Assembly: GCA_021325135.1 (NCBI GenBank)
Contig: JAJPHT010000029.1
Span: 128,001-192,000, forward strand
DNA length: 64,000 nucleotides
From: Pseudomonadota bacterium
GTDB lineage: Archaea > Thermoplasmatota > SW-10-69-26 > JACQPN01 > JAJPHT01
Direction of reading: 5' to 3'
The notes below the pieces were generated by a model. That model had not been told where the DNA came from, searched no databases, and saw only the letters and a list, made by a program, of their open reading frames with translations. Position numbers and translations under genes: made by a program. Shown here one piece after another: positions 9,318 through 60,670 of this stretch (the stretch's first letter is position 1; every line of letters starts with the position of its first letter).

Positions 9318-10310
9318 ATGAGCAAGACGGTGGCCGTGATCGGCGGGGACGGCATCGGCCCGGAGGTGGTGGACTCGGCCCTGGCGGCCCTGGACGCGCT
9401 GGACCTCGACCTGGGCTACCTGCACGCCAGCGCGGGGCTCGCGTGCCGGCAACGGCTGGGCGAGTACCTGCCGGAGGCCACGCTGGAGGCGGTGCGCGAG
9501 GCCGACGCCGTGCTCTTCGGGGCCATCACGAGCCCGCTGGACGACCGCAGCTACAAGAGCGTCGTCCTCGCGCTGCGGCAGGAGCTTGACGCCTACGCCA
9601 ACGTGCGCCCGGCCCGCGACCTGGGGCAGCCGTGCAAGGCGCCGGGGCTCGACCTCGTCCTCTTCCGCGAGAACACCGAGGGGCTCTACAACGCCCCCGA
9701 GGTGGAGGACGAGGAGGGCGTCACGACCATGAGGCGCATCACGCGGCGCGGCAGCGAGCGCGTCTCCCGCTTCGCCCTGGAGTGGTGCGTGCGACACGGG
9801 CGCAAGCGCCTCACCGTCGCCCACAAGGCCAACGTGCTGCGCCGGAGCGACGCCCTCTTCCGGCGCGTCTTCTTCGAGGAGGCCAAGGCCCACCCCTCGC
9901 TCAAGGCGGATGAGATCCTGCTGGACAACCTCGCGCTCCAGCTCGTGCTATCACCCTCGAAGCTTGACGCCATCGTGACCATGAACCTCTACGGGGACGT
10001 GATCAGCGACGAGATGGCGGGACTCGTGGGGGGCCTGGGCTTCGCGCCCTCGGGGAGCTACGGCCCGCGCGCCGCGCTCTTCGAGCCCGTCCACGGCAGC
10101 GCGCCCGACATCGCGGGCAAGGGCGTCGCGAACCCGTGCGGCGCCATCCTCAGCGCGGCGATGATGCTGGATTACCTGGGCCACGCGCCCGAGGCGCGCC
10201 GCGTGGAGGACGCCGTTCGCGCCGCGCTGCGCCAGGGCCGCACCCCCGACGCGGGCGGCACGCTGGGCACCGCCGGCTTCACGCGCCTCGTGGTGGAGAG
10301 CCTCGGATGA
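9318..10310 (+). CDS. Isocitrate/isopropylmalate dehydrogenase family (archaeal LeuB/AksF-like)
   Basis: [47 protein letters not shown]. Confidence 0.92.
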
Positions 10311-10942
10311 GCCGCGCCGCCCTTCTCGTCCTGGTCATCCTCGCGCTCGCCGGCTGCGCCGACCTGCGCGGGCCGGGCGCCGACGCCAGGGTGGAGGTCG
10401 CCTCGTGGAGCCTCGTCGGTGGGCACCTCGTGGGCGAGATCGTGGACCGCGGCCCCGACAACGCCCGCGCCCTCCGCGTCGCGGCCGACTTCTACGACGC
10501 CCACGGCGCGCGCCTCGCCTCCGGCCTCGCCCCCGCGTGGCGCCAGGTCCTCCAGGAGAACGAGACGAGCCCCTTCGACCTGCCCGCCCCCGAGGGCGCC
10601 GTGAACGCCACGGTGCGCGCGCTGGGCGAGGCCACCCGAGCCCCCGCCTTCGAGAGGCAGCACCTGGAGCCGCGCGACGTGCGGACGACGCAGGCCGTGG
10701 GCTCGGACACGGTGGCCTTCCAGGGCACGGCCTACAACGCGGGGGACATCACCATCGTCGGCGTCGAGGCGCAGGTCACCTTCCGCGACGAGGCGGGCCG
10801 GGTCGTCGGCGTCGCGCGCGCCACCCCCGACGCCCCCGCGCTGCGCGCCGGCGAAGGCTCCCTCTTCCACGGCAACGCCACGCTGGCCGCGCCCTTCCTG
10901 CGCTACGACGTCGTGGTCGTCACGACGGGCGCGGCCTCCTGA
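10307..10942 (+). CDS. Lipoprotein with two FxLYD-like domains
   Basis: Lipobox LAGC; ADFYDAHG and VTFRDEAG motifs; ATGA overlap with upstream gene. Confidence 0.75.
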   Translation: MSRAALLVLVILALAGCADLRGPGADARVEVASWSLVGGHLVGEIVDRGPDNARALRVAADFYDAHGARLASGLAPAWRQVLQENETSPFDLPAPEGAVNATVRALGEATRAPAFERQHLEPRDVRTTQAVGSDTVAFQGTAYNAGDITIVGVEAQVTFRDEAGRVVGVARATPDAPALRAGEGSLFHGNATLAAPFLRYDVVVVTTGAAS

Positions 10943-11063
10943 AGCGGCCCGGCACGTCGTCCTCGCCTGCCTGTGATCGATCCTGCCCGTCGCGTCCTTG
11001 GCCTCCGCCGGCCCCGGCCCCGACAAGGCCGCTGACGCCGCCCCAACGCCCTCCGGCGGCGCC

Positions 11064-11414
11064 TCAGAGGGCCTTCTCCAGGAGCGCCGCCACTTCCTTC
11101 TCCAGAAGGGAGCCGATCTCCTTGCCCAATTGGTCGCGCAGGTCTGTGGGCATCATCTGGACGCCCAGCTTCGCGCTGGCCTTCACGAACTTCAAGGACG
11201 CATACGCCTCGTTGACCTTCGCCTCGAAGTAGAGCCGCACCGCGTCCTTCAGCTCCTCCTTGAGCTCCGGGTTGCGGTCCAGCTCGTCGCGCATCTTGCG
11301 CTTGATCTCGTCCTTGAGCAGGTCGCGCAGCGCATCGACGATTAGCTCCTCGTTCCCCAGGAGGTCCGTGCCCCCGCGGAGCATCTGGCTGACGAGGTTG
11401 TCCTGGGCGGGCAT
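11064..11414 (-). CDS. Helical hypothetical protein
   Basis: MPAQDNLVSQMLRGG...; strong codon bias, charged amphipathic helices. Confidence 0.75.
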   Translation of the reverse strand: MPAQDNLVSQMLRGGTDLLGNEELIVDALRDLLKDEIKRKMRDELDRNPELKEELKDAVRLYFEAKVNEAYASLKFVKASAKLGVQMMPTDLRDQLGKEIGSLLEKEVAALLEKAL

Positions 11415-11450
11415 GCGGCGGCGACCGCGCGGGGCGGGCTTGAAGGTTCG

Positions 11451-11560
11451 TGCCAGGTGGCGCCAGGTGGGGGCAGGTGCGGCCGGGCGGGAGCAGGTGG
11501 GCACGGGCGTGCACGCCCGGCCCCGCCCGTGCGCACCCGTGCAGACCCGTGCACGCCCCG
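11451..11560. repeat. 10-bp-periodic degenerate repeats in divergent intergenic region
   Basis: tgccaggtgg/cgccaggtgg/gggcaggtgc/ggccgggcgg/gagcaggtgg, then ccccgcccgt/gcgcacccgt/gcagacccgt. Confidence 0.65.
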
Positions 11561-11629
11561 CCCCCACCACGAGCATCATACAGAGGTGTGCGGCAAGGGT
11601 TATATTCCCCAGGAGGAGCCGACCTGCTC

Positions 11630-12085: not shown

Positions 12086-12133
12086 TCCGCCAAAGGTTGA
12101 TGCGCGGGCGTCTCCTGGCCCGCCACGAGCGGC

Positions 12134-12346: not shown

Positions 12347-12350
12347 GCGC

Positions 12351-12902
12351 GTGGACGCGGCAGCCACCCTGGGCGTCGCGCTGGGCGCGGCGGGCCTTCT
12401 CACGAGCGGCTTCTCGCTGGTGTACTTCCGGATGCAGGCGGACGCGGCGCGGCGCCAGGCGGACGAGGCGCGCCGGCAGACGGAGGGCGCGACGCGGCTC
12501 GCGATGATGGAGAGCAACCTCCACATGTACGCGCGCTTCCGCGAGACGCGCAACAACTTCCTGGAGTACCCCAACCTGGAGCGCGAGTGGCGCTCGACGC
12601 ACCCGGCGTTCAACGAGATGTTCGACGCGTGCGGCGGGCTGGACAACTTCATCGCGGTGCGCGACGCCATGGACACCATGCAGGACGTCTACTTCCTGCG
12701 CAAGGACGGCGTCGTGACGGACCACTACTGGCACGTCTGGACGCGGACGTTCTTCCGCTTCTACTCCAAGATGCCCACGTTCCTGCGCGTCTTCGAGTTC
12801 GCGGCGAAGGAGGGGCTTCTGCACCCCGAGTTCGTGGCCTTCTATCGCCCCATCCTTGCGGGCCAGCCGTTGGGCGACCCTTGGAAGAAGGCCGGGGCCT
12901 AG
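12351..12902 (+). CDS. Membrane-anchored helical protein (possibly DUF4760-like)
   Basis: N-terminal TM, coiled segment, aromatic-rich helical domain. Confidence 0.6.
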   Translation: MDAAATLGVALGAAGLLTSGFSLVYFRMQADAARRQADEARRQTEGATRLAMMESNLHMYARFRETRNNFLEYPNLEREWRSTHPAFNEMFDACGGLDNFIAVRDAMDTMQDVYFLRKDGVVTDHYWHVWTRTFFRFYSKMPTFLRVFEFAAKEGLLHPEFVAFYRPILAGQPLGDPWKKAGA

Positions 12903-13324
12903 AGCGGCACGGGCGGAGCCTGCCACCCCGAGGCGTTCCACCACGACCAGTCGCGGCGGCGGCATGCGTCGACGTAGAGGAGCGCCAGCGCGTCGAGCCA
13001 CGAACCGGGGTCGTCGAGCCCCAGGCGCGCGGCGCCTTCGGGGTGCGTCCGCAGGGCGTAGAGCCCTTCGGCCATCTGGCGCTTGAAGCCCTCCTCCTTG
13101 CCGCGCGTGGCATTCTCTAGCGCGGCCGCGACGAGGATCATCCCCTTGAGGTAGGCCGCGGCGTCGGCGTCGCCCGCGGCGCGCAGCGCGTGCCACGCGC
13201 CTTCCCACGCCTCGTGGGCGTGCCAGAAGCGGCGCGCCGCGAACTCGCGCGCGCCTTCTGATAGCATCTCCGGCACGTCCGCGAGGGGGCGCGCCTCCTT
13301 GCGCGGGTCAGGCCCCTTGGGCAT
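12899..13324 (-). CDS. DUF309 family protein
   Basis: FWHAHEAWEGAW...YLKGMILVAAA. Confidence 0.85.
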   Translation of the reverse strand: MPKGPDPRKEARPLADVPEMLSEGAREFAARRFWHAHEAWEGAWHALRAAGDADAAAYLKGMILVAAALENATRGKEEGFKRQMAEGLYALRTHPEGAARLGLDDPGSWLDALALLYVDACRRRDWSWWNASGWQAPPVPL

Positions 13325-14555
13325 CGGCCAGGCTCACCTCCTTGGGGCGCGCGTGGGCCGCGACCGTGACGCCCAGGAGAGCGCCCAGCACCGCAACGGC
13401 GGCGCCCGCGGGGAACATGGCGCCGCCCCAGGCCGCGAGGAGCGGGCCGCCCGCCAGCGCGCCCAAGGCCCAGCCGAGGTTCCACGCCATGCTGGCGAAC
13501 CCCTGCGCGAAGCCGCGGCCGGCGGGGTCGACGCGGCCCATCATCATGACGTTGGCCAGGGGCGAGAGCGTGCTGGCGAAGACGTAGCGCAGCACGAAGG
13601 CCGCCATGAGGAGCGCGACGGGCGCGGGGAGCGCGAAGGGGACGAGGCAGAGGGCGGTGAGCGCCTGCCCCGCGACGAGGAGGGGCGCCGCCTGATATCG
13701 CGCCGCGAGCCGGCCCGCGAGCCAGAAGCCCAGGGCGCCCGCGGCGGTGGCCAGCGCGAGCGCGACGCCCCACTGGTCGGTGGGCGTGGCGAGGCCGTTG
13801 AGGAAATGGACGGCGAAGTAGGGCGTCGTCGCGCCGAAGGAGAAGCCCACGAAGACGTAGAGCGCCGCGACGGGCACGACGGCGGGATCGACGCGGCCGC
13901 GGGCCCCTGCGAGCCTCGCGCGGCTCGTGGGGATGCGCGCCTGCGGAAGGCCCAGGGAGAGAAGGAGCCCCGCCAGCGCCACCGCGGCGAAGAGGACGGC
14001 GTTCCACCGCAGCGCGGTCGCCTCGTCGGGCGCCATCGCGAAGACCTGCGCCGCGGCGAGGGGGCCCAGCGCGCTGGCGAGGACGGAGAGCGCGCCCGTG
14101 ACGCCGTACCCCTTGGCCATGCTGGCGCCGCTGAGGAGGTCCGCCACGTAGGAGTTGAACGGGATGGCGAGGAACGCGAGGCCCGTTCCTGATAGCACGC
14201 TCGCGAGCACGGTCGCGCCGAGGCTGGGCGGCGCGAGGAGCGGCGCGTAGGAGACGGCCAGCAGCGCGAGCCCCACGCGCATGATCCAGCGGCGCGGGAC
14301 GCGGTCCGCCAGCATGCCGGCGGGGACGACGGTGAGCATGGTCGCTCCCGCGCTGGCGGCGAAGGCCCACGCGTCGCGCCCCGCGACGCCCGCCGCGCGC
14401 AGGTTCACGGGCGCGAAGTAGAAGAGCCAGGTGCTTTGCGCGATGACGCCCAGCACGTAGGCCGCCGTCGCGACGCGCAACGCCCGCGCCGTGCCCCCGC
14501 TGCCGCCGCCGCGAAGGCGCGTGATCGCGCTCCCCAGCCACGCGCCCGCGTTCAT
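13308..14555 (-). CDS. MFS transporter
   Basis: About 12 TM; GMLADRVPRR motif A; ATGA overlap with the aldo/keto reductase. Confidence 0.85.
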   Translation of the reverse strand: MNAGAWLGSAITRLRGGGSGGTARALRVATAAYVLGVIAQSTWLFYFAPVNLRAAGVAGRDAWAFAASAGATMLTVVPAGMLADRVPRRWIMRVGLALLAVSYAPLLAPPSLGATVLASVLSGTGLAFLAIPFNSYVADLLSGASMAKGYGVTGALSVLASALGPLAAAQVFAMAPDEATALRWNAVLFAAVALAGLLLSLGLPQARIPTSRARLAGARGRVDPAVVPVAALYVFVGFSFGATTPYFAVHFLNGLATPTDQWGVALALATAAGALGFWLAGRLAARYQAAPLLVAGQALTALCLVPFALPAPVALLMAAFVLRYVFASTLSPLANVMMMGRVDPAGRGFAQGFASMAWNLGWALGALAGGPLLAAWGGAMFPAGAAVAVLGALLGVTVAAHARPKEVSLADAQGA

Positions 14556-15361
14556 CCCGCCAGCAGCTCCGCGATGGCCGCCCGCTCCTTCTCGTCGTAC
14601 CAGCGGCCTTCTGCGCCCACGGCGGCGTTCTCGCGCAGGTGCTCCGGGCTCGACGTGGCGGGGATGACGCTGGAGACGCGCGGGTCGCTGAGGATCCACC
14701 GCAGGCAGACCTGGGCCCAGGTGGTGATATCATCCTCGGCGAAGGGCCGCCACGCCTCCTCCGGGGGCGCCCTGCGCGCGAGGACGCCCGTGCCCAGGGG
14801 CTCCATGACGAGGACGCCCAGGCCCAGCTTGTCCGCCAGGGGGAGGATCTTCTGCTCGACGCTGCGGTCGATGAGGTTGTAGGGCACCTGGATCATGTCG
14901 AGGCGCCCCGAGCGCATGAGCCCCTCCAGCTCGTCGAACGCCGCGGGGTTGTAGTGGGTGGCGCCGATGGCGCGCACCTCGTCGCGCTTCTTGCGCGTCT
15001 CCAGCTCCTTGAGGTGCTCCTGCCAGAGGCGGAGGTTGTGCACCTGGTAGATCTCGACGACGCCGCCGTAGAGGTCCAGCGCGTGGGCGATCTGGCGGCG
15101 CCCCTCCTCGGCGCTGGAGGCCCAGACCTTCGTCGCGACGATGGCCTCCTCGCGGTCGTGGCGCAGGCAGTCGGCCAGCACCTCCTCGGCGCGCCCGTAC
15201 ATGGGGCTGCTGTCGTAGAGCGAGACGCCCAGGTCCAGCGCCTCGCGCACGAGCCGCCGCCTCGCGTTGCGCGCCGCGCCCTCCACGTCGAAGGTCTTCC
15301 ACGTGCCCATGCCCACGACGGGGACGTGGATGCCGCTGCGCCCCAGGGGTCGCTCCTGCAC
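14552..15361 (-). CDS. Aldo/keto reductase
   Basis: VGMGTW, YDSSPMYG, ATKVW, QVPYN, IPATSSPEHLREN. Confidence 0.92.
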   Translation of the reverse strand: MQERPLGRSGIHVPVVGMGTWKTFDVEGAARNARRRLVREALDLGVSLYDSSPMYGRAEEVLADCLRHDREEAIVATKVWASSAEEGRRQIAHALDLYGGVVEIYQVHNLRLWQEHLKELETRKKRDEVRAIGATHYNPAAFDELEGLMRSGRLDMIQVPYNLIDRSVEQKILPLADKLGLGVLVMEPLGTGVLARRAPPEEAWRPFAEDDITTWAQVCLRWILSDPRVSSVIPATSSPEHLRENAAVGAEGRWYDEKERAAIAELLAG

Positions 15362-16081: not shown

Positions 16082-16087
16082 GGGGTT

Positions 16088-17482: not shown

Positions 17483-17535
17483 GGCCGCCACTCGTTCGCG
17501 ACCGGCTTCAAGCTTCGCGCGCCCTTTTCCCCTCC

Positions 17536-25124: not shown

Positions 25125-25778
25125 TCACGGCAGCGAGCTGAAGGGGACCTCGTCGTAGAGGAACGGAAGCTCCGCGGTGCAGGGCTGGGGGCCGCTGCCC
25201 ACGGGGACGAAGACGACGGCCGCGTCCACGTCCACCTCGCGCGTCTCCTGGCAGCCGCTCCCGGTGCCGGTCTGCGTGTCGTAGGCGCCCACGCCCACGC
25301 TGGCGACGTCCTGCACGGTGAACCAGCTGCTGGCGCCGATGCAGGTGCTCCGGCCCACGACGCTGGAGCACGCGCTCCCCTCGTCCTCGGGGGTGGTCTG
25401 GTCGCGCTGGTTGGCGTCGGCCTGCACGCCGGTGCCCGCGACGCCGCGCACGCCCTCGAAGGCGCCCGCGCCCGCGTCGGTCCACTGGCGGCTCTGCTGC
25501 GTGGTGCCGTCGTCGTAGGTCCACGAGCCCTGCTCCAGGTCGGCGTGCGCGTAGTCGAACGCAGGGTCGGCCTCCACGGCGTGGCTGACGTGCAGGACGT
25601 AGTCGTGGGTGAACGTCTGGCTCGGGTCGCCGAAGCTCCCGTGGTCCAGCGCGCACGCGGTGGTGTAGTTGGTGTCGGGGTACTGCTCCACGGTCACCAC
25701 GTCGCACTCGGCGTGGGCTGGGAGCGCGGCGAAGGGGAGCGCCAGAAGGACCAGGGCCAGCAGGGAACGGACTCGCAT
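25125..25778 (-). CDS. Secreted hypothetical protein
   Basis: Signal peptide ending AHA; 6 Cys. Confidence 0.7.
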   Translation of the reverse strand: MRVRSLLALVLLALPFAALPAHAECDVVTVEQYPDTNYTTACALDHGSFGDPSQTFTHDYVLHVSHAVEADPAFDYAHADLEQGSWTYDDGTTQQSRQWTDAGAGAFEGVRGVAGTGVQADANQRDQTTPEDEGSACSSVVGRSTCIGASSWFTVQDVASVGVGAYDTQTGTGSGCQETREVDVDAAVVFVPVGSGPQPCTAELPFLYDEVPFSSLP

Positions 25779-26049
25779 GTCGATGCCTCTCCGCGGGCCG
25801 CAGGGCGCGCGGCGTCGATAAGCGCTTGCGTCCAAGGCCTGGGGCGAAGCCGCGAGGGCATCACCCTTCAACGCGGCGCACGACCCGCGGGAGGGCGTCC
25901 CCCGGCGGCGTGTGATAGCAAAGGACTGCCCGGGGCCCGTCCAGCCGCCATCGGCCGGCCGGCGCAGGCGCGAAGCGGCGCCTCAACCGCTTGCGCGGAA
26001 CGGCCGCCGCGGGCACGCTTTTGGTCCCGCCGCGCGCTTGCGGCTCCGC

Positions 26050-31816: not shown

Positions 31817-33112
31817 ATGCGTGGCTGGATCGACGAGGCGCGCGACCATGTCCGCGCGATTCTCGGCGCCGCCCTCCTTGCCGCCAATCCGCAGACCGTC
31901 ATGCGCTCGGTGCGCCGCGACGGCGACGACCTGCTTCTTCCCGACGGATCGAGCGTCCGCCTTGCCGGCCGAGCCGTGCGCTGCCTCGCGGTGGGCAAGG
32001 CCGCGGGCGGCATGGCCGCGCACGCGCAACCGTGGGGCCCCTTCGCGGAGGCCGTGGTCGTGGCGCCCCACGAGGTGGACCTCCCCGGCTTCGAGGGCTT
32101 CGTGGGCGGACATCCCACGCCCGACGCGGGGAGCCTCGCGGCGGGCGAGCGCGCGCTGGCCCTCGCCCGCGCCTGCGGGCCCGGCGACCTGCTGATCGTC
32201 TTGCTATCAGGTGGGGCCTCCGCGCTCTGCGAGTCGCCCCTGGTGCCGCTCTCCGACCTCCAGCGCGTGAACGGCCTGCTCCTGCACGCCGACGCGCCCA
32301 TCGAGGAGGTCAACGCGGTGCGGCGCCACCTCTCGGCGCTCAAGGGGGGCCGCCTCGCGCTGGCGTGCGCGGGCGAGGTCCTGCTCCTGGCCATCAGCGA
32401 CGTGGAGCCCGGCGACCTGGCGAGCCTGGGCTCGGGCCCGGTGAGCCCGGACCCCACGACGTGCGCCGACGCGCTGGAGGTCCTGGCGCGTCGCGGCGTC
32501 CTCGACGCCGTGCCGCCCCGCGCGCGGGCCGTCCTGGAGTCGGGCGAGGGGGAGACGCCCAAGCCTGGCGACGCGGCGTTCGCGCGCGTGCGCTCCTTTG
32601 TGCTGGCCGACAACGACACGGCGCTGCGCGCGGCCTCGCTCCAGGCGTCGCGGCTGGGCTACGACGTGCGGATGCTGTCGGGCTGGCTGCGGGGCGAGGC
32701 GCGGGAGCGCGGCCGCGACCTCGCGCAGGCCGCACGCGACGCCGCCACCGGCCGCGGCCGCCCCCTGGCGCTCCTGGCGGGCGGCGAGACGGTCGTGCGC
32801 GTCGCGGGACACGGCAAGGGGGGCCGCAGCCAGGAGATCGCCCTCGCGGCGATGGAGGGGCTCTCCGCGCAGGACGCCGCGCTCGCCGCGCTGGGCACCG
32901 ACGGCCGCGACGGGCCCACCGACGCGGCGGGCGCCATCGTGGACGGCCGCAGCCTCGCGCGGGCCCAGGCGCTGGGCCTCGACGTGGGCGCGCACCTGGA
33001 GGAGAATGATAGCTTCCCCGTCTTCGAGGCGCTGCACGACCTCATCCGCACGGGCCCCACCGGGACCAACGTGCGCGACGTCGTCGTGCTCCTCGTGCGG
33101 CGCGGCTCATGA
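31817..33112 (+). CDS. Glycerate 2-kinase (DUF4147/MOFRL family)
   Basis: AVGKAA, GGHPTPD, LLSGGASAL, KGGRL, SDV, GGETVV, GTDGRDG, TGPTGTNVRD. Confidence 0.92.
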   Translation: MRGWIDEARDHVRAILGAALLAANPQTVMRSVRRDGDDLLLPDGSSVRLAGRAVRCLAVGKAAGGMAAHAQPWGPFAEAVVVAPHEVDLPGFEGFVGGHPTPDAGSLAAGERALALARACGPGDLLIVLLSGGASALCESPLVPLSDLQRVNGLLLHADAPIEEVNAVRRHLSALKGGRLALACAGEVLLLAISDVEPGDLASLGSGPVSPDPTTCADALEVLARRGVLDAVPPRARAVLESGEGETPKPGDAAFARVRSFVLADNDTALRAASLQASRLGYDVRMLSGWLRGEARERGRDLAQAARDAATGRGRPLALLAGGETVVRVAGHGKGGRSQEIALAAMEGLSAQDAALAALGTDGRDGPTDAAGAIVDGRSLARAQALGLDVGAHLEENDSFPVFEALHDLIRTGPTGTNVRDVVVLLVRRGS

Positions 33113-51100: not shown

Positions 51101-51108
51101 GGGTGATA

Positions 51109-54100
51109 TCACGCCTCGCGGTGGGCCTCGTGCTTGGCTGCGCGCTGCGCGTCCACGTCCTCCACGGGGACGCGGCGGGGCGGGCGGCGGTGCTCGCGGC
51201 GGAAGCGGAGCGCGGCGAAGGCGTAGCCGGACGCGCCCACGACGCCCACGCCCACGAGGACGGCCTGCGGGAGGAGGGCCATCTCGTAGGTGACGTAGAG
51301 GGCCATGGCCGCGGCGGCCGCCGCGAGGGAGACGGGCTTGCTCCAGCGCCAGACCTCGCCGCCGGGGAGGGGGCCGAAGGGCATGGCGGCGGTGGCGAGG
51401 GCCGAGACGGCCATGGCGACGCCCACGCTCTCCAGCGTGTAGAAGCCCAGGCGGCCCGCCACGAGGAAGACGAGGCTCCACGCGCTGGTGATGCCCAGGA
51501 TCGCCAGGGCGCGGTGGCCGGCGAGGCGCTTCTCGCCCTCGGTCTCCTCGACGCCGTTGTCCACGTAGCCCGGGTAGCCGAAGGGCGAGCGGAAGGCGAT
51601 GGTGGAGACGAGGAGCGACGCGACGCCCGCGACCCAGATGCGGAAGCGGACGCGCGCGCCCGAGAGGTGGGCGATGAGCGACTCGCTGCCGTACTTCTGG
51701 AGGGCGAGGAGGACGGCCGCGACGCCCACGAAGGGCAGCGTCGCGACGAAGGCCGCCCAGGTGTAGGCGCCCGCCTCGGCGATGGTGTAGAACACCGCGA
51801 TGAGGGAGACGGTGAGGACCAGCGCGATGGCGCTGGCGATGCGGCGGCGTCGCTCGATCGAAGCGAGGTCCTTGGTCCGGTCGCGCAGCGCGTCGCTGCC
51901 CGCGTCGGTGAAGAGGTCCTTGAGGTACTGCGTGAAGCTGAAGCCGGAGCTTCCGCCGCCGCTGGTGACCGCGCTGCCCGCCGCGCTGCTGACGGAGCTG
52001 GAGGCGGTCGCGGTGGCCGCGCCCATGGCGCTGGTGGTGAGGGTGTTGGTGGCCACGGTGGCGAGCGCCGCCGCGCCGACGCCCAGGGCCGCGCCGCCGT
52101 CCGCCGCGGCCGCGGTGTAGGCCGAGTTGCGCACGAGGACGCTCGTGCTGGCGAGGACGACCTCGTGGCCGTCGGGCTGGCGCTCGCGGGCCTCCACGGT
52201 GTAGTGGCCGTCGTCCTGCTGCGTGGTGTCCCAGGTGGCGTCGCTGCCGCCGCCCAGGGTGGTCTCGTGCCCCTGCTCGTCGATGACGACGAAGCGCACG
52301 CGGTCCGGGTGCGGCGCGTTGCGGAGGCTCACATGGACCTGCCCGCGGGCGCCCGCGTCCAGGCTCGCCGTGGCGTTGGCGTCCTGCGTGACCACCAGCT
52401 GCGGAGCCGGAGGGGGCGAGGAGGGGGATGCAGACGCGGGCGTGGGCGTGACGCTGGCCTGCTCCAGGGGCTGGCCGCCGCCGGAGGAGGGCGAGCCGCT
52501 GTTGCCTGAGGGCGCGGGCGTCGAGGGAGGGCGCGCGGTGGGCGAGGTGGGCGCCGTGGCGTTGTCGTTCTGCGCGGTGGCGAGGGGCGCGTCCATGCGG
52601 AAGCTGCCGCCGGAGCCCGAGGTCTCGTGGCCCGCGTGGTCGCGCGCGACGAGGCTCACCGAGTAGGAGCCGGCCGCGCGGGGGGAGAGCGTGCCCACGA
52701 AGGAGCCGCCGGCGGGCGAGAGGTCGACGCTCGTGCCGTCGGAGAGCAGCGCGCGGACGGAGGCGACGCCCGAGGCGTCGTCGTGGGCGCGCACCGTGAG
52801 CGTGACGCCGTGGCCCACCGTGGCGTTGGGCGCGGAGAGCGAGGCGCCGTCCAGCGAGGGAGGCGCGAGGTCCACCTGGAAGTCCTGCGCGTGCTCGGCC
52901 TCGTCGGGCGCGCCCGTCTGCGTGGCGTGCCAGTGGAGCGTATGGCGTCCCGCGGGGATCGCGATGGGACCCGAGTAGGCCTGGTCCGAGCCGCCGTCGA
53001 GGCGCCAGAGCAGCGAGGCGCCGGAGGAGGCGTTCAGCGCCACGCTGGGCGAGGAGACGTACCACCCTTCGCCGCCGTCGGGCGACGCGGGGGAGATTGT
53101 GGCGTGGCTCGTGGGCGAGGGGAGCGCCGGGAGCGTGGCGGTGGACTCGGGGCTCGACGAGCCTTCGCCCACGTCGTTGACTGCCGCGACGGAGTACGCG
53201 TAGGTGCCGCCGGGGCGCGCCGTGGCGTCGTCGAAGGACGTGCCCGACACGGTGGCGAGGAGCGCGCGCCCTTCGCTGGCGCGGCGGTAGAGGTGATAGC
53301 TCGTGAGGGGCGGTGAGCCCGCGTCGCCGGGCGGGGCCCACGCGACGAGGACGTGGCCATCCGCGACGGTGACCGAGGGCGCGCCGGGGGCGCCGGGCGC
53401 GTGGCGCGCGGGCGTCGGCGGGGGAGGCCGCGGCGGGGGCGGGGCGGGCGGGCTCTGCACGTCCACCGTGCCGGCGTCCGCGTCGCGCGCGTTGCCCGCG
53501 GCGTCCACGGCGTGGGCGCGCAGCGTGAGCGCGCCGGCCGGAGCGGCGTGGAGCGTGGCGTTGGCGAAGCGGCCGTCGAACGTCGTGGGCAGCGCCGCGT
53601 CGCCGACGCGCAGCGAGACGCCCGCGACGCCCGAGAGCGGATCGCTCACGGGCAGGCTGAAGGCGATGTCATCGCCAGGGCGCGGGAGCGCGGGGCTCAC
53701 CGAGAGGTTGCCCAGGATGGGCGCCTGGTCGTCGACGCGGATCTCCACCGCGTGGGGCGTCTCGTCGGGGAGGCCGTCGGCGGTGGCGTTGTACGTCAGC
53801 TCGTGGACGCCCGCGGGGATGGCAAAAGGCCCGTCGTAGATGATATCATCGCTGCCGTCGAGGCGGTAGGTGATGCGCGCGTTGTCGGGCGTCGCCGTGA
53901 GCGTCGCGTTGGGCGCGTGGACGTACCAACCGGCGGCGCCGTCGGGCGCGGGGAGCGAGAGCGTCGTCTGCACCGCGGGGCCCAGCGGCGTGAACGCGAA
54001 GGGCGCGGCGAGGCGGTTGCCCGCGAGGTCCGAGGCCCCGGTGCCCACGACGACGGGCGGGGGGGTCGTCCAGCCGTCGCGGCGCTCCAGCGCGAGGTAG

Positions 54101-57100
54101 CCCTCGTCGTACCAGACGAGGTGCCAGCCGTCGAGCCCGCGCAGCGCGGAGCCCACGGCGTACTCGCTCATGCCCTCGGAGAACTCAAGGTCGACCTCGT
54201 AGGAGACGGCCTCGGCGCGGACGGAGGCGTCCTTGGCGCGCGCGTGCGCGAGGGCCGCGTCCTCGAAGCCGCCCTGGTCGAAGCGGTCGAGACGGACCGT
54301 GGGGCGCGTGAGGTCGATGCGCACGCTGCGCTCGGCGACAGGGCTCTGGGTGCCGTTCTCGTCCAAGACCACGGCCTCCACGTCGTGCCAGCCCTCGGGG
54401 AGGGTGAGGTTGTCGCCCTGGACCCAGTCGCCGTCGTCCACGCGGTAGGCCAGCGTGGAGAGGTTGAGGGCGCCCGTGCCGGCGACGGGGGCGAGCGTCA
54501 CGTGGACGGGGCTCGTGTAGACGCCTTCGTGGCCGTCGGGCGTCGCGGGGTCGAGGTCGAGGCGGACGCATGGCGGGACCGTCGCGTCGGGGGAGGGCTC
54601 GTAGGCGAGGGAGGCACGCGGGCCTTCGCCCGCGGCGTTGCGCGCGGCCACGGAGTACGTGGCGGGGAGCGACGCGTCGAAGGCGGGGTCGGACGCGCCC
54701 GGCTTGCCCACCTGCGCGACGAGGACGTCGCCTTCGCAGGGCGTCGAGCGGAAGAGGTCGTAGCCGAGGATGGCCGCGCCGCCGTCGCCCTCAGGCGCGC
54801 TCCACGAGAGGGAGGCGCCGCCCTGCTCGGAGGGCGTGAGCGAGAGGCCCGTGGGGGCGTCGGGGGGCGTGGCGTTGGGGGGCGTGAAGAGGATGCCCGC
54901 GTCGGCGAGGCCGAAGAGGCCGTGGCGGTAGCTCAGCCCGATGGCGCCGCTGGGGTCCTCGATGCCCACCGTCCGGAGGTGGCTGCCGTCGCTGGGCACG
55001 TCGGCGCTCTGCACCTCGACCTGGTTGGTGCCCTCGTGGAGGATGATCTCGAACGTGACGGGCTCGCGGTGGTAGAACTGCGAGACGCCCTCCCACGAGA
55101 CGACGAAGGAGCGCTCGGGGGCCTGGCCCAGGGTGGCGACGTGGATCGTGCCTTCGCCGGGGGCGTAGAGGTCCTCCCAGTCGCCCGCGATGACGTCGTG
55201 GAGGTAGGAGCCGGGGATCGCCTGGCCGTTGCAGCACCCCTGGCTCGTGCCGGGGTCGAAGGCGAGGAAGCCGTTGCTGCCCACGTAGAGGGAGTCGTGG
55301 GTCTGGCCGTAGAAGGTGAAGTTGAACCCGATGGGGACGAGGGTGCTCAGCACGTCGTCCTCCAAGGGGAGGGGCACGCCGCCGGTGGCGTCGACCCAGC
55401 GGAAGTCCGTGGTGGCGCACGAGTAGCCCGCGGCGTCGGTGGCCGTCTCGCAGGGGGCGAGGTCGCCGGCGCTCAGCGAGGCCGCGAGCGCGCCGGGGGC
55501 GTCGCCCGGCTCGCCGTAGGCCACGAGGCGATAATGATAGCGCGCGTGGGCGTCGAGGCCCTCGTCCTGGTAGCCCGTGGCGTCGGCGCCGAGGCTCGCG
55601 ACGTACCGGTTCTCGTAGCCCTCCGCGGTGCCGCGGTAGAGGCGGTAGCCCGCGAGGCCTTCGCCCAGCGTGCGCGGCGCGGTCCAGTTGAGCTGCACGC
55701 TGCCGGGCTCGCTCCCAGGAACGGCGGTGAGGTTCTGCGCCTCGCTGAGGTGGTCGCCGGGGAGGAAGAGCGTGGCGGCGTGGTGCAGCGCGTCCGCGCC
55801 GTAGAGCGCGCGCAGGCCCGAGGAGCCCTCGGGGCTCTCGATGCCCGTGACGTGGACGCGGCCGTCGGAGGGGGCGTCCACGACCTGCGTCTCGATGATA
55901 TCAGACGACTCGTGGAGGATGACCTGGAAGGTGGAGGGGGCGGCGCCGTCGGGGTTGGGGACTCCGCTCCACTCGGCGACGAACTCGCGCTCGGGGGCCG
56001 AGCCCAGCGTGGCGTAGCGCACGGCGCCGGCGAGGCCGGGGTCGAGGTCGCCCCAGTGGCCCGCGACGAGGTCGTTGGGCGCGTTGGCGTCGGGGACCTC
56101 CTGGCCCGCGCAGCAGCCGGCCGTCTCGTCGTCCTGGAACGTGAGGTAGCCGTTGGGCGAGAGGTAGGCGTGGTCGTGGGCCTCGCCGTAGAAGGAGAAC
56201 GAGAAGCCCAGGGGGATGGGCTCCGAGAGCCCCTCGTCGCCCAGGTGGACGAGGGTGGCGTTGGAGGGCAGCGCGCGCGGCGCGAAGGGCGTCTCCTCGC
56301 ACGCGTAGCCGAAGGTGTCGTTGACCATGCCGCAGGCGGGCTGGAAGGGGGCGTCGCCGCAGGGCGCGGCGTCGCGCACGAGGCAGTCGGCGTCCAGGAC
56401 GCCGGCTCCGGTGGCGTCGTCGTGGCCCCGCGCGCCCACGTCGCGGGCGGTGGCGAGGAGGCGCGCGCGAAGCTGCGCGGCGGTGAGGTCGGGGTTGGCG
56501 CTCCACGCGAGGGCCAGGGAGCCGCTCACGAAGGCGGTGCTCATGCTGGTGCCCGAGAGGGAGGCGTACGACGAGTCGTCGCCGTCCCACGTCGAGAGCA
56601 CGCCCTCGCCGGGCGCCGCGATGGCGACCTGCGGGCCCTTGGAGGAGAAGGAGCAGGGGAGGTCCGAGCCGTCGACGCACGAGACGGCGATGACGTCGGG
56701 GAGGCGGGCGGGGAAGAGGACGCAGTCGTTGCAGCCCTCGTTGCCGCTGGCGGCGACCACGAGCTTGCCGTGCGCAGCCGCGTAGGCGACGGCGTCGTCC
56801 AGGGCGGAGGAGTCGGCCTCGCCGCCCAGCGACATGGAGATCACCGTGCGCGGCGGCGTGTGGCCGACGCACCAGGTGACGCCCTGCGCGATGACGTCCA
56901 TGCTGCCCATGCCGGCGAAGTCCAGGACCTTGACGCCGTAGAGGCTGACGTTGGCGACGCCCGCGATGCCCAGGCCGTTGTCCACGGTGGCCGCGGCGAT
57001 GCCCGAGACGTGCGTGCCGTGGCCGTTGTCGTCCATCGGGTCGTCGTCGCCGTTGACGAAGTCGTGCCCGCCCATCCAGCGCGTGCCGTTGAGGTCCTCG

Positions 57101-57570
57101 TGGGTGTAACGGACGCCAGTGTCCACGACGCAGAGGGAGGCGTTGGCCGCGTCGCCGAAGCCGGCGGTGGCCCACGCGAGGCCCGCGTGGATCTGCGCGA
57201 GGCCCTCCTGGTCTGCGAAGGAGGGGTCGTTGGGCGCGACGGGTGTGGCGGCCTCGTCCAGAAGGAGCGTGAGGGTGGGGGCGGCCTCGACGGACTCGAC
57301 GCGCGGGTCCGCGGCGGCGCGCTGCGGGAAGGAGGGGTCGGTGGAGACGACCGAGACGCGCTGGATGGGCGCGTTCACGGCGACGACGCGCGCGCCGTCA
57401 AAGGAGCTGCCCACGTCCGCGGAGGGCTCGCCCCGCAGGTGGAGGACGTAGCGCGTCTCGGCGGCGCGGGCGGTGGCGCCGAAGGAGGGGGCGAGGACGA
57501 GAAGGGCCAGCGCGAGGCACGCGGCGCGGGTCGTGGTCGTGGAGCGGGATGAATGAATGCGGGTCGCCAA
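51109..57570 (-). CDS. Giant surface S8 subtilase with nidogen-like, FN3 and Ig-like domains and a C-terminal multi-TM domain
   Basis: Signal peptide; triad VVDTG / NGHGTHV / GTSMST; FN3-like repeats; Pro/Ser/Thr linkers; about 6 TM at C-terminus. Confidence 0.88.
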   Translation of the reverse strand: MATRIHSSRSTTTTRAACLALALLVLAPSFGATARAAETRYVLHLRGEPSADVGSSFDGARVVAVNAPIQRVSVVSTDPSFPQRAAADPRVESVEAAPTLTLLLDEAATPVAPNDPSFADQEGLAQIHAGLAWATAGFGDAANASLCVVDTGVRYTHEDLNGTRWMGGHDFVNGDDDPMDDNGHGTHVSGIAAATVDNGLGIAGVANVSLYGVKVLDFAGMGSMDVIAQGVTWCVGHTPPRTVISMSLGGEADSSALDDAVAYAAAHGKLVVAASGNEGCNDCVLFPARLPDVIAVSCVDGSDLPCSFSSKGPQVAIAAPGEGVLSTWDGDDSSYASLSGTSMSTAFVSGSLALAWSANPDLTAAQLRARLLATARDVGARGHDDATGAGVLDADCLVRDAAPCGDAPFQPACGMVNDTFGYACEETPFAPRALPSNATLVHLGDEGLSEPIPLGFSFSFYGEAHDHAYLSPNGYLTFQDDETAGCCAGQEVPDANAPNDLVAGHWGDLDPGLAGAVRYATLGSAPEREFVAEWSGVPNPDGAAPSTFQVILHESSDIIETQVVDAPSDGRVHVTGIESPEGSSGLRALYGADALHHAATLFLPGDHLSEAQNLTAVPGSEPGSVQLNWTAPRTLGEGLAGYRLYRGTAEGYENRYVASLGADATGYQDEGLDAHARYHYRLVAYGEPGDAPGALAASLSAGDLAPCETATDAAGYSCATTDFRWVDATGGVPLPLEDDVLSTLVPIGFNFTFYGQTHDSLYVGSNGFLAFDPGTSQGCCNGQAIPGSYLHDVIAGDWEDLYAPGEGTIHVATLGQAPERSFVVSWEGVSQFYHREPVTFEIILHEGTNQVEVQSADVPSDGSHLRTVGIEDPSGAIGLSYRHGLFGLADAGILFTPPNATPPDAPTGLSLTPSEQGGASLSWSAPEGDGGAAILGYDLFRSTPCEGDVLVAQVGKPGASDPAFDASLPATYSVAARNAAGEGPRASLAYEPSPDATVPPCVRLDLDPATPDGHEGVYTSPVHVTLAPVAGTGALNLSTLAYRVDDGDWVQGDNLTLPEGWHDVEAVVLDENGTQSPVAERSVRIDLTRPTVRLDRFDQGGFEDAALAHARAKDASVRAEAVSYEVDLEFSEGMSEYAVGSALRGLDGWHLVWYDEGYLALERRDGWTTPPPVVVGTGASDLAGNRLAAPFAFTPLGPAVQTTLSLPAPDGAAGWYVHAPNATLTATPDNARITYRLDGSDDIIYDGPFAIPAGVHELTYNATADGLPDETPHAVEIRVDDQAPILGNLSVSPALPRPGDDIAFSLPVSDPLSGVAGVSLRVGDAALPTTFDGRFANATLHAAPAGALTLRAHAVDAAGNARDADAGTVDVQSPPAPPPPRPPPPTPARHAPGAPGAPSVTVADGHVLVAWAPPGDAGSPPLTSYHLYRRASEGRALLATVSGTSFDDATARPGGTYAYSVAAVNDVGEGSSSPESTATLPALPSPTSHATISPASPDGGEGWYVSSPSVALNASSGASLLWRLDGGSDQAYSGPIAIPAGRHTLHWHATQTGAPDEAEHAQDFQVDLAPPSLDGASLSAPNATVGHGVTLTVRAHDDASGVASVRALLSDGTSVDLSPAGGSFVGTLSPRAAGSYSVSLVARDHAGHETSGSGGSFRMDAPLATAQNDNATAPTSPTARPPSTPAPSGNSGSPSSGGGQPLEQASVTPTPASASPSSPPPAPQLVVTQDANATASLDAGARGQVHVSLRNAPHPDRVRFVVIDEQGHETTLGGGSDATWDTTQQDDGHYTVEARERQPDGHEVVLASTSVLVRNSAYTAAAADGGAALGVGAAALATVATNTLTTSAMGAATATASSSVSSAAGSAVTSGGGSSGFSFTQYLKDLFTDAGSDALRDRTKDLASIERRRRIASAIALVLTVSLIAVFYTIAEAGAYTWAAFVATLPFVGVAAVLLALQKYGSESLIAHLSGARVRFRIWVAGVASLLVSTIAFRSPFGYPGYVDNGVEETEGEKRLAGHRALAILGITSAWSLVFLVAGRLGFYTLESVGVAMAVSALATAAMPFGPLPGGEVWRWSKPVSLAAAAAAMALYVTYEMALLPQAVLVGVGVVGASGYAFAALRFRREHRRPPRRVPVEDVDAQRAAKHEAHREA

Positions 57571-57650
57571 GCGGCCGCCTCCCGCGCGGCCGTAGGTGCT
57601 CGCCTTGAAAGCCTTTTCCGTGCCCGGATTCGCCGGGGTGGAGGACTCCT

Positions 57651-58028: not shown

Positions 58029-58080
58029 GGGGCGCGCATGGCGGGGGGTTCGGAAAAAGGCGAGCCTTGACGGCGCATGC

Positions 58081-58674
58081 TCAGAGCGTCAGGCTGCATC
58101 GCATGGAGGGGCCTGAGGGGAGGGGTGCGATGGCGCAGGTGGCGAGGAAGGGGGCGCGCGTGGCGACGACGAGGCCGTATCCTTGCGCCTCGGGGTGGAC
58201 CACCTGCTCGAGGGTCCAGCCTGCGTCCTGGAATCTGCTGGCGGTGTCGTTCACCACGGCTGAGGCGTTGGCGTCCGCGGGGTAGGCCACGGAGAGGAAC
58301 GCGAGGGGGTGGCCCGCCGCGGCGACGGGGCCCGAGGAGGCGGAGGCGGAGGATTCGCCCGGCGCGCGGGGGAGGTGCGCCGCCATGTCGCGGAGCATGA
58401 ACGGGAGCGGCGCGTTGACCACGAGCACCAGCGCGACGCCCACGGCGGGGGCGGCGGCCGCCAGCGACAGGGGCGAGAGGCGTAGCGCGAGGCCCACCGT
58501 GAGGGTGAGGGCCACGAGGAGCGCCAGCGCGCCGACGTAGGACCACGGGGCGCGGGTCGCGAAGGCCGCGAGGCCGCGGTCCAGCGCCACCACGAGGAGG
58601 ACCACCAGCAGGACCGCGGACGCCAGGTAGGCCGGGAGGGCCCAGGGGCGGCGGCGACGAGGGGCTAGGTTCAA
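58081..58674 (-). CDS. Membrane hypothetical protein
   Basis: Three TM helices then soluble domain; start uncertain. Confidence 0.5.
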
Positions 58675-58741
58675 GGGAATGCCCACGTTCGGAGGCGTCA
58701 ACGGCCCGGGAACGGGCTCCTTCCGCTTCAGGTGCGCGGCG

Positions 58742-59857
58742 ATGGCGACCAAGGCCGACTACTACGAGCTGCTGGGCGTCCCCCGCGACGCCAGCGCCGA
58801 GGACGTGAAGAAGGCGTACCGCAGGCTGGCGCTCCAGTACCACCCCGACCGCAACCGGGAGCCGGGGGCCGAGGAGCGCTTCAAGGAGATCAGCGAGGCC
58901 TACGCGGTCCTCAGCGACGCCGAGAAGCGGAAGACCTACGACCAGTTCGGGCACGCCGGGTTCGACGAGCGCTACACCCAGGAGGACATCTTCCGCGGGG
59001 CGGACTTCGGCGACATGGGCTTCGACATGGGGAGCATATTCCGCACCATCTTCGGGGCCGGCTTCGGCGGCGGGCCGCAGGGCGGGCGCAACCTCGAGAC
59101 CTCCCTGGAGATCACCCTGGAGGACGTGGCCAACGGGGGCGAGAAGGAGGTGCGCGTGACGCGGCTGGAGCGGTGCGAGTCGTGCGGCGGCTCGGGCGCC
59201 AAGCCCGGCACGCGGCCCACGCGCTGCCCGACGTGCCGCGGCCACGGCCAGGTGGCGCGCCAGATGCGCACGCCCTTCGGCCTGGTGCAGACCGCGGGCC
59301 CCTGCCCCCAGTGCGGCGGCCGCGGCGAGGTCGTCGCGACGCCCGACCCCGCGTGCAAGGGCGAAGGGCGCATCCAGCGCACGCGCACGCTCAACATCCG
59401 CATCCCAGAAGGCGTTCCCGACGGGGGCACGCTGCGCCTGCGCGGCGAGGGCGAGGCCGGCCCTGACGGATTCCCCGACGGCGACCTCTACGTGCACGTC
59501 CGCGTGAAGCCGCACGCGGTCTTCCAGCGCGACGGCGACGACCTGCACGTCCCCGTGCCGCTCACCTTCAGCCAGGCGGCGCTGGGCGACGAGGTGGACG
59601 TGCCGCTGCTGGAGGGCAAGCAGGACCGCATCATCATCCCGGCGGGCACGCAGGGGGGCGAGGTCTTCCGCCTGCGCGGCAAGGGGCTCCCCAGCCTCAA
59701 CGGCAGCCGCCGCGGCGACCTCCTGGCCCACGCCCGCGTCTACACGCCCGTGAAGCTGAGCGCGGAGGAGCGGAAGCTCTTCGAGGAGCTTGCGCGGCTC
59801 GAAGGGCGCGAGCCGAGGAAGGGGTTCTTCTCCGACCTCAAGAAGAAGCTGGGATGA
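58742..59857 (+). CDS. dnaJ: Chaperone DnaJ
   Basis: J-domain with HPD, G/F region, CxxCxGxG repeats, C-terminal domains. Confidence 0.95.
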
Positions 59858-60011
59858 GGAGCGCCGGGCGCGCCAGGATACGAGGTCGAGCCGCCAGCGC
59901 GATGGCCTCCAGCGCGAGGTCCACGTCCATCTCCAGCGCGCAGCCGACGCCCGCCTCGAAGTGCTCGCACGAGCGGCATCTCGCGGGGGACTTGCACGAC
60001 ATCGACTCCAT
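59838..60011 (-). CDS. Small Cys-rich hypothetical protein
   Basis: [38 protein letters not shown]... Confidence 0.45.
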
Positions 60012-60143
60012 GGGCCACGCGCCATGCGTCCAGTGGACACGAGGGGTCATGGGGGTGCCCATGGGGGAGGGGGCGCCGAAAGTGGAGGCGGGCGGGCGTT
60101 CCTCCGGCGTCACCCTTAAGGAGCGCGCCCCGTCTGGGACCCT

Positions 60144-60578
60144 GTGCCCGTCACGCGCCTGGAGCTCACCGGCATCGAGGCCAAGCGGTACTCGAAGACC
60201 AACGAGCGGCTCCCGCAGATCCGGATCGACCACTCCTCCACCGTGACGCTGGTGAAGGAGCTGACGCCCCAGGAGGTCAACGTGGAGTTCCGCTACACGG
60301 CCGCCTACGGCGCCGTGGGCGTCATCCGCATCGAGGGGAACATGAACTTCACCTGCGACGCGAAGGCCTTCGAGACGCAATGGCGCACCACGAGCCAGAT
60401 GCCCCACGAGGCCGCGACCGAGATCCACAGCACCGTCATGCGCGCGTGCGTGCCCCAGGCCGTGGGCATCGCGAAGGACCTCCAGCTCCCTCCCCCCATC
60501 CCGCTCCCGCAGGTGAACTTCGGCCCCCAGCAGCAGGCGCAGAAGGCCGGCGCGGTGCACGGGCCCGAAGTGATGTGA
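60144..60578 (+). CDS. Archaeal hypothetical protein (possible SecB-like fold)
   Basis: IEAKRY...VEFRYTAAYG.VG.IRIEG...DLQLPPPIPLPQV. Confidence 0.75.
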   Translation: MPVTRLELTGIEAKRYSKTNERLPQIRIDHSSTVTLVKELTPQEVNVEFRYTAAYGAVGVIRIEGNMNFTCDAKAFETQWRTTSQMPHEAATEIHSTVMRACVPQAVGIAKDLQLPPPIPLPQVNFGPQQQAQKAGAVHGPEVM

Positions 60579-60670
60579 TATCACGGCTCGCGATAGCAGA
60601 ATGAGAAGCCATCAAGCTATCAAAATGGATTGATAGCATGCGCTTGCGCGACCTCGAACGGATGCTATCA
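60576..60670. promoter_or_regulatory. Cluster of five TG(A/C)TA(G/T)CA-type motifs
   Basis: TGATATCA 60576, CGATAGCA 60591, AGCTATCA 60615, TGATAGCA 60631, TGCTATCA 60663. Confidence 0.6.

Follow-up and report, generated by a model that had tools for sequence, protein, structure and literature searches.

A palindromic DNA word iterated across the genomes of one genus of GC-rich soil archaea, with a ribbon-helix-helix protein as candidate reader

Copies of a short DNA word lie scattered within and between unrelated genes in a 64,000-nt stretch of an archaeal genome (G000, contig C33, positions 128001 to 192000; here, "the window"). The genes that carry it include those for an isocitrate/isopropylmalate dehydrogenase, an aldo/keto reductase, a transporter, a subtilase, and a METTL5-like small methyltransferase (names from Pfam profiles). 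The pattern tested, TGMTAKCA, occurs as the palindrome TGATATCA or as the asymmetric variants TGCTATCA and TGATAGCA. We find it to be a strand-symmetric word whose enrichment is graded by the quality of the match, which is specific to one genus, is continually recreated, and changes both codons and amino acids. An earlier note, made from the sequence of this stretch, had listed 12 exact copies and estimated that fewer than one should occur; all 12 are present where it placed them (Table 1), and 100 dinucleotide-preserving shuffles of the window yielded a mean of 0.41 copies and a maximum of 3. The codon spellings that it described are also correct, with Leu-Ser written as CTA-TCA at five copies, Asp-Asp-Ile as GAT-GAT-ATC at two, and a TGA stop codon overlapped by two. 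The additional 7/8 matches that it listed, several of them shifted by one position, form no excess as a class: 28 matches with at most one mismatch were found against 20.45 expected, and 9 of the 100 shuffles reached 28. Among one-mismatch matches, only those in which G[AC]TA[TG]C, the 6-mer core, is intact are part of the phenomenon.

We examined the whole of G000, which comprises 3.77 Mb in 51 contigs of 71 to 75% GC (about 72%), using 3,772 genes (87.6% coverage) from a codon-model open reading frame (ORF) caller. The genome holds 361 sites, of which 210 are TGATATCA and 151 are TGATAGCA or TGCTATCA; the remaining form of the pattern, TGCTAGCA, has zero copies. No 8-mer in G000 exceeds its expectation from base composition by more than TGATATCA does (53-fold), and its 420 occurrences on both strands compare with 15.4 under a third-order Markov model. 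When synonymous codons were permuted within each gene, ten times, TGATATCA ranked first of all 65,536 8-mers (155 observed versus 2.1), and the variants were enriched as well (TGCTATCA, 106 versus 5.8; TGATAGCA, 21 versus 0.7). A short palindrome is thus over-represented against compositional, Markov, and codon-aware nulls alike, as in the highly iterated palindrome (HIP) words. The codon-aware comparison had been proposed in the earlier note as a check, as had a comparison of codon use outside the motif, and the codons concerned are not used in this way elsewhere: codon bias is extreme, and CTA makes up 0.4% of Leu codons genome-wide, TCA 0.9% of those for Ser, GAT 5.4% for Asp, and TAT 6.9% for Tyr. 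The word runs against base composition, and its cost is therefore visible codon by codon. From amino acid sequence and codon usage, 0.62 copies of nnT-GAT-ATC-Ann would be expected at 526 possible sites, and 137 are observed; the figures for nTG-CTA-TCA are 0.02 expected and 78 observed at 1,337 possible sites, and those for TGC-TAT-CAn are 2.0 expected and 26 observed at 29.

The word is enriched in four frames, in which it encodes D-I, L-S, I-S, or C-Y-H/Q, and the asymmetric variant is enriched to a similar degree in either orientation (17- to 30-fold). Moreover, 38 copies are fully intergenic, and 27 gene junctions have the form TGA-TA(T/G)C-ATG, in which a stop and a start codon supply half the word. 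Occurrence in several frames, in both orientations, and in noncoding DNA argues for a DNA signal rather than a peptide, RNA, or codon-pair signal. To this extent the reading of the earlier note, that a signal in the DNA takes precedence over codon usage, is borne out, and a site for a dimeric protein, as it also proposed, is the most economical reading, with a candidate repressor whose own promoter carries the core (see below). The specific roles that it suggested, namely, chromosome organization or segregation, DNA uptake, and methylation-linked repair, gain no support from the results that follow. The polarity of words such as Chi and KOPS/AIMS was not seen, given that the dominant word is a perfect palindrome and the asymmetric variants are enriched both ways. 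Beyond the codon period the flanks are uninformative, and the word is consequently not part of a longer repeat or mobile element. Avoidance of a neighboring word in the main frame was likewise rejected as an origin: GAC-ATC-A is frequent (303 copies), and the two rare codon choices occur together. A promoter or translation-start signal was rejected as well, since a peak at position -7 before start codons consists of TGA-TATC-ATG junctions and in-frame D-I-M, and no general TATA-like role of the word was seen.

The choice at each position depends on the others, as in a recognition site. Where Asp-Ile is followed by A, the Asp codon is GAT in 137 cases and GAC in 15 if the preceding base is T, and GAT in 30 and GAC in 181 if it is C. 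Similarly, TAT accounts for 85 of 87 Tyr codons in nGA-TAY-CA and 26 of 29 in TGC-TAY-CA, versus 6.9% overall. In a table of half-site combinations the perfect palindrome is the optimum and enrichment drops stepwise on loss of the outer T or A; hardly any copies exist of any combination that contains CTAG, and G[AC]TACC shows a 3- to 12-fold depletion. The word alters protein sequence and not just codon choice, in that the codon after Asp-Ile starts with A in 29.9% of cases, versus 16 to 19% after D-V, D-L, and E-I.

A lineage-specific, context-dependent bias of mutation or repair, or a codon-pair effect, might make such a word by accident, with no reader at all. All word-creating changes do run from GC to AT, the common mutational direction, and codon-pair effects exist in this genome: Glu-Leu is spelled by the rare pair GAA-TTG 245 times, and GAATTG occurs 259 times versus 24.6 in the synonymous shuffle, a 10-fold excess that stands alongside strong avoidance of GAGCTC. 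That excess, however, is a different effect from the palindrome, being limited to the sense strand and to frame 0 (the reverse complement CAATTC is not enriched), whereas the palindrome occurs in four frames, in both orientations, and outside genes. A simple mutational bias would also leave unexplained the interdependence of four to five positions, the palindrome as optimum, and the persistence across the genus of a spacer with an array of four to six copies. We therefore judge an accidental origin to be very improbable.

The host is archaeal, as indicated by its NMD3, DUF424, exosome Csl4, and METTL5 genes, and homologues of the candidate reader described below are labeled Candidatus Thermoplasmatota. 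Its genus is represented by five species-level genomes (G000 to G004), which contain 210, 111, 378, 141, and 53 copies of TGATATCA, a 7-fold spread between species; four sister genera contain 2 to 5. Likewise, GCTATCA occurs 223 to 674 times in genomes of the genus (control, 16 to 111) and 19 to 73 times in the sister genera (control, 28 to 46). The enrichment is confined to one genus of uncultured, GC-rich soil archaea. All of the genomes are metagenome bins, a circumstance that might raise the question of an assembly or sequencing artifact, yet five species-level genomes are enriched, at mostly non-orthologous positions, and sister genera are not; the sites respect reading frames and amino acid similarity, and their density varies with gene class. 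The chance of an artifact is, in our view, negligible. Separately, a genome of a distant family of the same phylum (G030, ∼49% GC, 3.3 Mb) holds 215 copies of TGATATCA versus ∼53 from base composition, as estimated from the GC content of 15 kb, a mild excess of ∼4-fold.

Conservation at orthologous positions, a further check proposed in the earlier note, was examined in these relatives, and the sites are not conserved. Among four window sites compared, only that at 9946 is shared, and with G002 alone; G001, G003, and G004 carry other words there. The site at 13259 is missing from the orthologous place in G002 and G004, that at 14190 is missing from G002, and at 14725 G002 has GAG-GAG-GTC-GCC (Glu-Glu-Val-Ala), so that the amino acids differ. 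We took 387 kb of G002, the closest species, of which 296 kb aligned to G000 at ∼77% identity. The aligned part contains 66 sites in G002 and 34 in G000, with 10 in common, so that 15 to 29% are shared, versus 39 to 44% of control 8-mers that are likewise AT-rich; for the 6-mer core the shared fraction is 27 to 37%, versus 46 to 47% for its controls. Because sites are shared less often than matched control words, it is copy number and not position that is maintained. Selection on individual sites is accordingly unlikely, and the force would act on copy number or would consist of a transmission or repair drive. The orthologous words found in place of sites are typically CGACATCA, CGACGTCA, CGACCTCA, TGCTGTCG, and TGCTCTCC, with CGACGTCA and CGACCTCA in G002 encoding D-V and D-L. 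From these words we infer that copies arise by GC-to-AT changes, some of which are conservative in the protein (Val or Leu to Ile).

Along the genome, the gaps between sites match an exponential distribution (coefficient of variation, 0.97), so that spacing looks Poisson-like, with the caveat that an assembly of 51 contigs limits the view of periodicities of 10 to 90 kb. Density is ∼1 site per 10 kb on the large contigs, and the core occurs ∼1 time per 2.5 kb, or about 1,500 times genome-wide. Binding sites of the parS, matS, or Noc/SlmA kind are zonal, gathered in or kept out of an origin or terminus region; here, as far as a fragmented assembly allows the comparison, the large contigs other than C46 all have similar densities, and no clustering was seen in any chromosomal zone. 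Arrays linked to replication origins were considered and rejected, as none lies near the two orc1/cdc6 genes. The exceptional contig C46 (217 kb, 68.4% GC), probably a large element that is mobile or was recently acquired, has 0.28 copies per 10 kb where other contigs have about 1, a three- to fourfold deficit. Among genes, the least host-like (foreign-looking) decile has the lowest density, and density also declines in the deciles with the strongest codon bias.

Such a distribution is what a transmission drive would predict, in the manner of the uptake signal sequence (USS) and DNA uptake sequence (DUS) and of a proposal made for the cyanobacterial palindrome HIP1. Under it, DNA that bears the word would be preferentially taken up, transferred, packaged, or recombined within the genus, and copies would spread without benefit to the cell. 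It would account for dependence on the whole word, random even spacing, fast turnover without positional conservation, amino acid changes, low density in recently acquired DNA, and confinement to a single genus whose species differ 7-fold in copy number. A parallel exists in HIP1, for which recent reports describe a link to transformation and suggest a role as uptake sequence (PMC13756078; bioRxiv 10.1101/2024.09.10.611283). The machinery of bacterial competence is, however, missing from our searches: none of 21 genomes gave a match to ComEC (PF03772), and none of 9 genomes of the family a match to DprA (PF02481), in each case with detection in the control genomes, and no transfer apparatus was identified. 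Uptake sequences are, in addition, asymmetric 9- to 12-mers at ∼1 per kb, while the word here is a palindrome at ∼1 per 10 kb, and we know of no sequence-specific DNA import in archaea. On balance, we consider a transmission drive unlikely, though it deserves to be kept in mind.

The classical idea about HIP1 is that it originates through methylation, and an equivalent here would be an orphan methyltransferase acting on GATATC or G[AC]TA[TG]C, with a coupled short-patch or strand-directed repair that converts near-matches. HIP1 itself is recognized by two orphan methylases (PMC4390886; PMC13756078). Methylation systems do appear to shape G000, as several palindromes of restriction type are avoided inside its genes (CTCGAG, 316 versus 2,991; CGATCG, 461 versus 1,970; CGTACG, 204 versus 1,327; GAGCTC, 769 versus 2,315), which suggests several restriction systems, past or present. 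Runs of C are avoided as well (CCCCCCCC, 3 versus 926), and CTAG is depleted. We screened the proteome by sequence motifs and by Pfam profiles on 20 candidates, a screen that was not exhaustive, and found four DNA methylases in G000. The first is a beta-class N6/N4 enzyme with an SPPY motif, which occurs in 14 of 21 genomes across the class, in non-enriched genera no less than in the enriched one; it resembles an orphan methylase with a housekeeping role, and given the strong depletion of CTAG, that tetramer may be its target, as one guess. A second N6/N4 methylase occurs in G000 only, and the other two, an Eco57I-like N6 enzyme and a C5 enzyme, lie on C46. No methylase of the D12 family (Dam/M.EcoRV) was found in G000, G001, G003, or G004, and the single match in G002, not counted as Dam-type, is a borderline fragment in a 1,090-aa frame (21.8 bits versus a cutoff of 22; 22.1 with its neighbors). 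The screen thus revealed no cognate orphan methylase that co-occurs with the word, as one does for HIP-type words, and no genus-specific one. G000 has two Vsr-family genes, and Vsr was found also in G003 and weakly in G004; it was not found in G001 or in G002, the genome with the most sites and a completeness of 99%, so that its presence does not follow that of the word. A search for the EcoRV endonuclease family gave no match and is uninformative, as the control genomes were silent too. Finally, very-short-patch repair drives a single position, whereas at least positions 1, 4, 5, 6, and 8 are driven here. We regard an origin by methylation as improbable.

Spacers with at least three copies of the core are found at only a few places in the genome, and one of them lies in the window, where five copies within ∼95 bp precede and enter the METTL5-like gene (Table 1). 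The same spacer has four to six copies in G001, G002, and G004 and one in G003; outside the genus it has zero copies in G005, G006, G007, G009, and G011. We rejected the 145-aa gene directly 5' of the array as its cause, because the gene order is the same in G007 and G009, where the array is absent. The METTL5-like protein belongs to families of small RNA or protein methyltransferases and bears no mark of a DNA methylase. Two further groupings were seen outside the window. A second array of six to seven copies of GATAGCA, GCTATCA, or GATATCA in 70 bp, 10 kb past the window end, occupies an A-rich spacer before an NMD3-family gene and is present in G000 only, not in G001 to G004 or G006. On a contig of 69% GC, a winged-helix-like gene of 95 aa and a DDE transposase of IS240 type have three copies of the motif between them.

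Table 1. Copies of the word, arrays, and genes of interest. Positions without a contig name are those of the window; all others are given as genome, contig, and positions.
Feature	Position	Setting	Spelling or remark
TGCTATCA	9946..9953	In isocitrate/isopropylmalate dehydrogenase (Iso_dh) gene 9318-10310, + strand	GTG-CTA-TCA (Val-Leu-Ser)
TGATAGCA	13259..13266	In DUF309 gene 12899-13324, - strand	Sense ATG-CTA-TCA (Met-Leu-Ser)
TGATAGCA	14190..14197	In MFS transporter gene 13308-14555, - strand	Sense GTG-CTA-TCA
TGATATCA	14725..14732	In aldo/keto reductase gene 14552-15361, - strand	GAT-GAT-ATC-ACC (Asp-Asp-Ile-Thr)
TGATAGCA	25913..25920	Intergenic, between genes 25125-25778 (-) and 26050-26859 (+)	
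TGCTATCA	32202..32209	In DUF4147/MOFRL (glycerate-kinase type) gene 31817-33112, + strand	TTG-CTA-TCA in IVLLSGGA
TGATATCA	51104..51111	End of subtilase gene (2,153 aa) 51109-57570, - strand	Its TGA is the stop codon of the gene
TGATATCA	53841..53848	In subtilase gene	GAT-GAT-ATC-ATC
TGATATCA	55896..55903	In subtilase gene	TCT-GAT-ATC-ATC
145-aa gene	60144..60578	+ strand, directly 5' of array	No Pfam or NCBIfam family matched
Array of core copies	60576..60670	Upstream of and into METTL5-like gene	Five copies in ∼95 bp
TGATATCA	60576	Array	Contains TGA stop of gene 60144-60578
CGATAGCA	60591	Array	
AGCTATCA	60615	Array	
TGATAGCA	60631	Array	Adjoins ATG at 60638 (METTL5-like gene)
TGCTATCA	60663	Array, in METTL5-like gene	ATG-CTA-TCA
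METTL5-like small methyltransferase gene	60638..61261	+ strand, downstream of array	NPPF motif
Second array	G000:C33:201901-201969 (L093:9901-9969)	Before NMD3-family gene	
Three motif copies	G000:C13:3166-4868 (L166)	Beside transposase	
Candidate CopG-type ribbon-helix-helix gene, 55 aa	G000:C14:48347-48514	Outside window	Motif cluster in its promoter
Beta-class N6/N4 DNA methyltransferase	G000:C40:132730-133710	Outside window	SPPY motif
Eco57I-like N6 methylase	G000:C46:23377-24771	Outside window	
C5 methylase	G000:C46:29646-31526	Outside window	
Vsr-family gene	G000:C8:40598-40792	Outside window	
Vsr-family gene	G000:C27:118406-118609	Outside window	

A candidate for the protein that reads the word is a CopG-type ribbon-helix-helix (RHH) repressor of 55 aa encoded elsewhere in G000. 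Its homologues carry PF01402 and the CopG family name, and its profile matches the RHH domain of NikR with an E value of 0.01. The predicted structure (pLDDT 71) has an extended segment at residues 1 to 11 and helices at 12 to 25 and 30 to 45, a strand-helix-helix order, and all top Foldseek matches to this model are RHH proteins, none of them significant. The N-terminal segment (KQVLFR), which would be the RHH strand, has residues that are invariant among orthologues. The homologues, the NikR profile match, and the topology of the model together assign this protein a predicted RHH fold. In 10 of 10 distinct orthologous RHH promoters, one to four copies of G[AC]TA[TG]C lie within 170 bp of the start codon, beside a TATA-like box. 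These promoters include those of non-enriched genera, where the background of the core is ∼0.25 per kb, and in G005 two of only 19 GCTATCA in the whole genome lie in the RHH promoter. The putative operator consists of GCTATC/GATAGC outside the genus and mostly of GATATC inside it. Operators of the CopG/Arc/MetJ type, among them the heptad arrays recognized by omega of pSM19035, are built of 6- to 7-bp pseudo-palindromic subsites, in direct and inverted orientation, around the protein's own promoter. The candidate gene appears to have the same arrangement of repeated subsites, made of the motif core and conserved among orthologues. Its protein is accordingly a probable reader of the core, which does not by itself implicate it in the spread of the word. 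Known operators of this family are local, in contrast to a subsite that is found also ∼1,500 times over the chromosome of one genus.

We propose that TGATATCA, with the weaker TGCTATCA and TGATAGCA and the core G[AC]TA[TG]C, serves as the recognition site for a DNA-binding protein with twofold symmetry and that a genus-specific force favors new copies anywhere in the genome, a reading to which we assign a probability of roughly 40%. The word would be read as duplex DNA by a small protein of this symmetry, for which the 55-aa RHH protein is the best candidate. Some change specific to the genus would give every new copy an advantage; it might affect the RHH protein (for example, its Gly/Lys-rich tail), the quantity of that protein, or a partner. 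The advantage could stem from chromosome-wide binding that organizes the nucleoid or marks DNA as self. Copies do arise where they are cheapest, at silent third positions (nnT-GAT-ATC-Ann, nTG-CTA-TCA, TGC-TAT-CAn), where Ile conservatively replaces, for instance, Val or Leu, at TGA stop codons, and at TGA-TATC-ATG junctions. More specifically, an RHH operator may have turned into a chromosome-wide mark, with drive or selection for copy number writing ∼360 full and ∼1,500 core sites, which would be a new route to an iterated palindrome, one independent of any methylase; we hold this version only tentatively and think it somewhat unlikely.

Several observations weigh against the proposal that this protein is the reader and that new copies are favored. 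The RHH gene is also present in sister genera without genome-wide enrichment and cannot, therefore, be a sufficient cause, and a search of G001 (86% complete) did not find it. Its neighbors in relatives, namely, tryptophan 2,3-dioxygenase, a beta-eliminating lyase, and DUF885, suggest an ordinary local regulator. Searching by motif clusters favored the finding of a regulator with a matching operator, and the correspondence may be a coincidence. No genus-specific gene was identified, and a benefit from ∼360 dispersed, nonconserved sites is hard to picture; the nature of the advantage is the weakest step. Nor does a single selection coefficient fit all contexts, given an excess of ∼220-fold for nnT-GAT-ATC-Ann versus ∼4,000-fold for nTG-CTA-TCA. 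Around the RHH gene in relatives (L182 to L187 and others) we also observed a tryptophanase-type lyase, an HVO_0163-type helix-turn-helix protein, and a DUF35/thiolase pair, a neighborhood that suggests a local role in aromatic amino acid catabolism.

Among known systems, the word most resembles HIP1 (GCGATCGC) and the alternate palindromes of cyanobacteria (PMC4390886; PMC5861425; PMC13756078). These, too, are 8-bp palindromes with tens- to hundreds-fold excess over codon-aware expectation, found inside and between genes and in any frame at a cost in codons, specific to lineages, and of unproven function. By this analogy TGATATCA may be described as an archaeal counterpart of the HIP1-type highly iterated palindrome. 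It differs in being an AT-rich word in an archaeon of 72% GC, in its frequency (∼1 per 10 kb versus up to >1 per gene for HIP1), in its restriction to a genus rather than a phylum, in spacing that looks Poisson-like rather than periodic as far as a 51-contig assembly shows, and in that no cognate orphan methylase was found for it. The two also turn over differently, as TGATATCA sites are less conserved than control words, the opposite of HIP1 sites, which are reported to be more conserved than expected (PMC5861425). With the USS of Pasteurellaceae and the DUS of Neisseriaceae, the word shares a genome-wide excess in genes, accommodation by codons and amino acids, lineage specificity, scarcity in foreign DNA, and a model in which drive explains accumulation without positional function. 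It is unlike them in being palindromic, shorter, and rarer, in its archaeal host, and in the failure to find ComEC and DprA. Full-text searches of the literature for TGATATCA, and for GATATC with archaea, palindrome, and methyltransferase, returned nothing relevant, and we found no paper that describes the word.

What is new here is the on/off contrast between genera, the turnover relative to matched controls, the negative searches for methylases, Vsr, and competence genes, and the lead to an RHH protein. Practically, rare codons that cluster in these genomes should not be taken as evidence of horizontal transfer or translational pausing. Highly iterated palindromes have gone unexplained for thirty years and have been studied almost only in cyanobacteria. 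The present case is set apart by its archaeal host, by fast turnover, by searches in which neither a matching methylase nor a bacterial competence gene was found, and by a candidate reader that can be tested. It opens to direct testing the general question of what maintains such words: function, transmission drive, or repair bias. The sister genera of these soil archaea serve as natural controls and, if our reading is true, could expose the mechanism behind HIP-type words generally.

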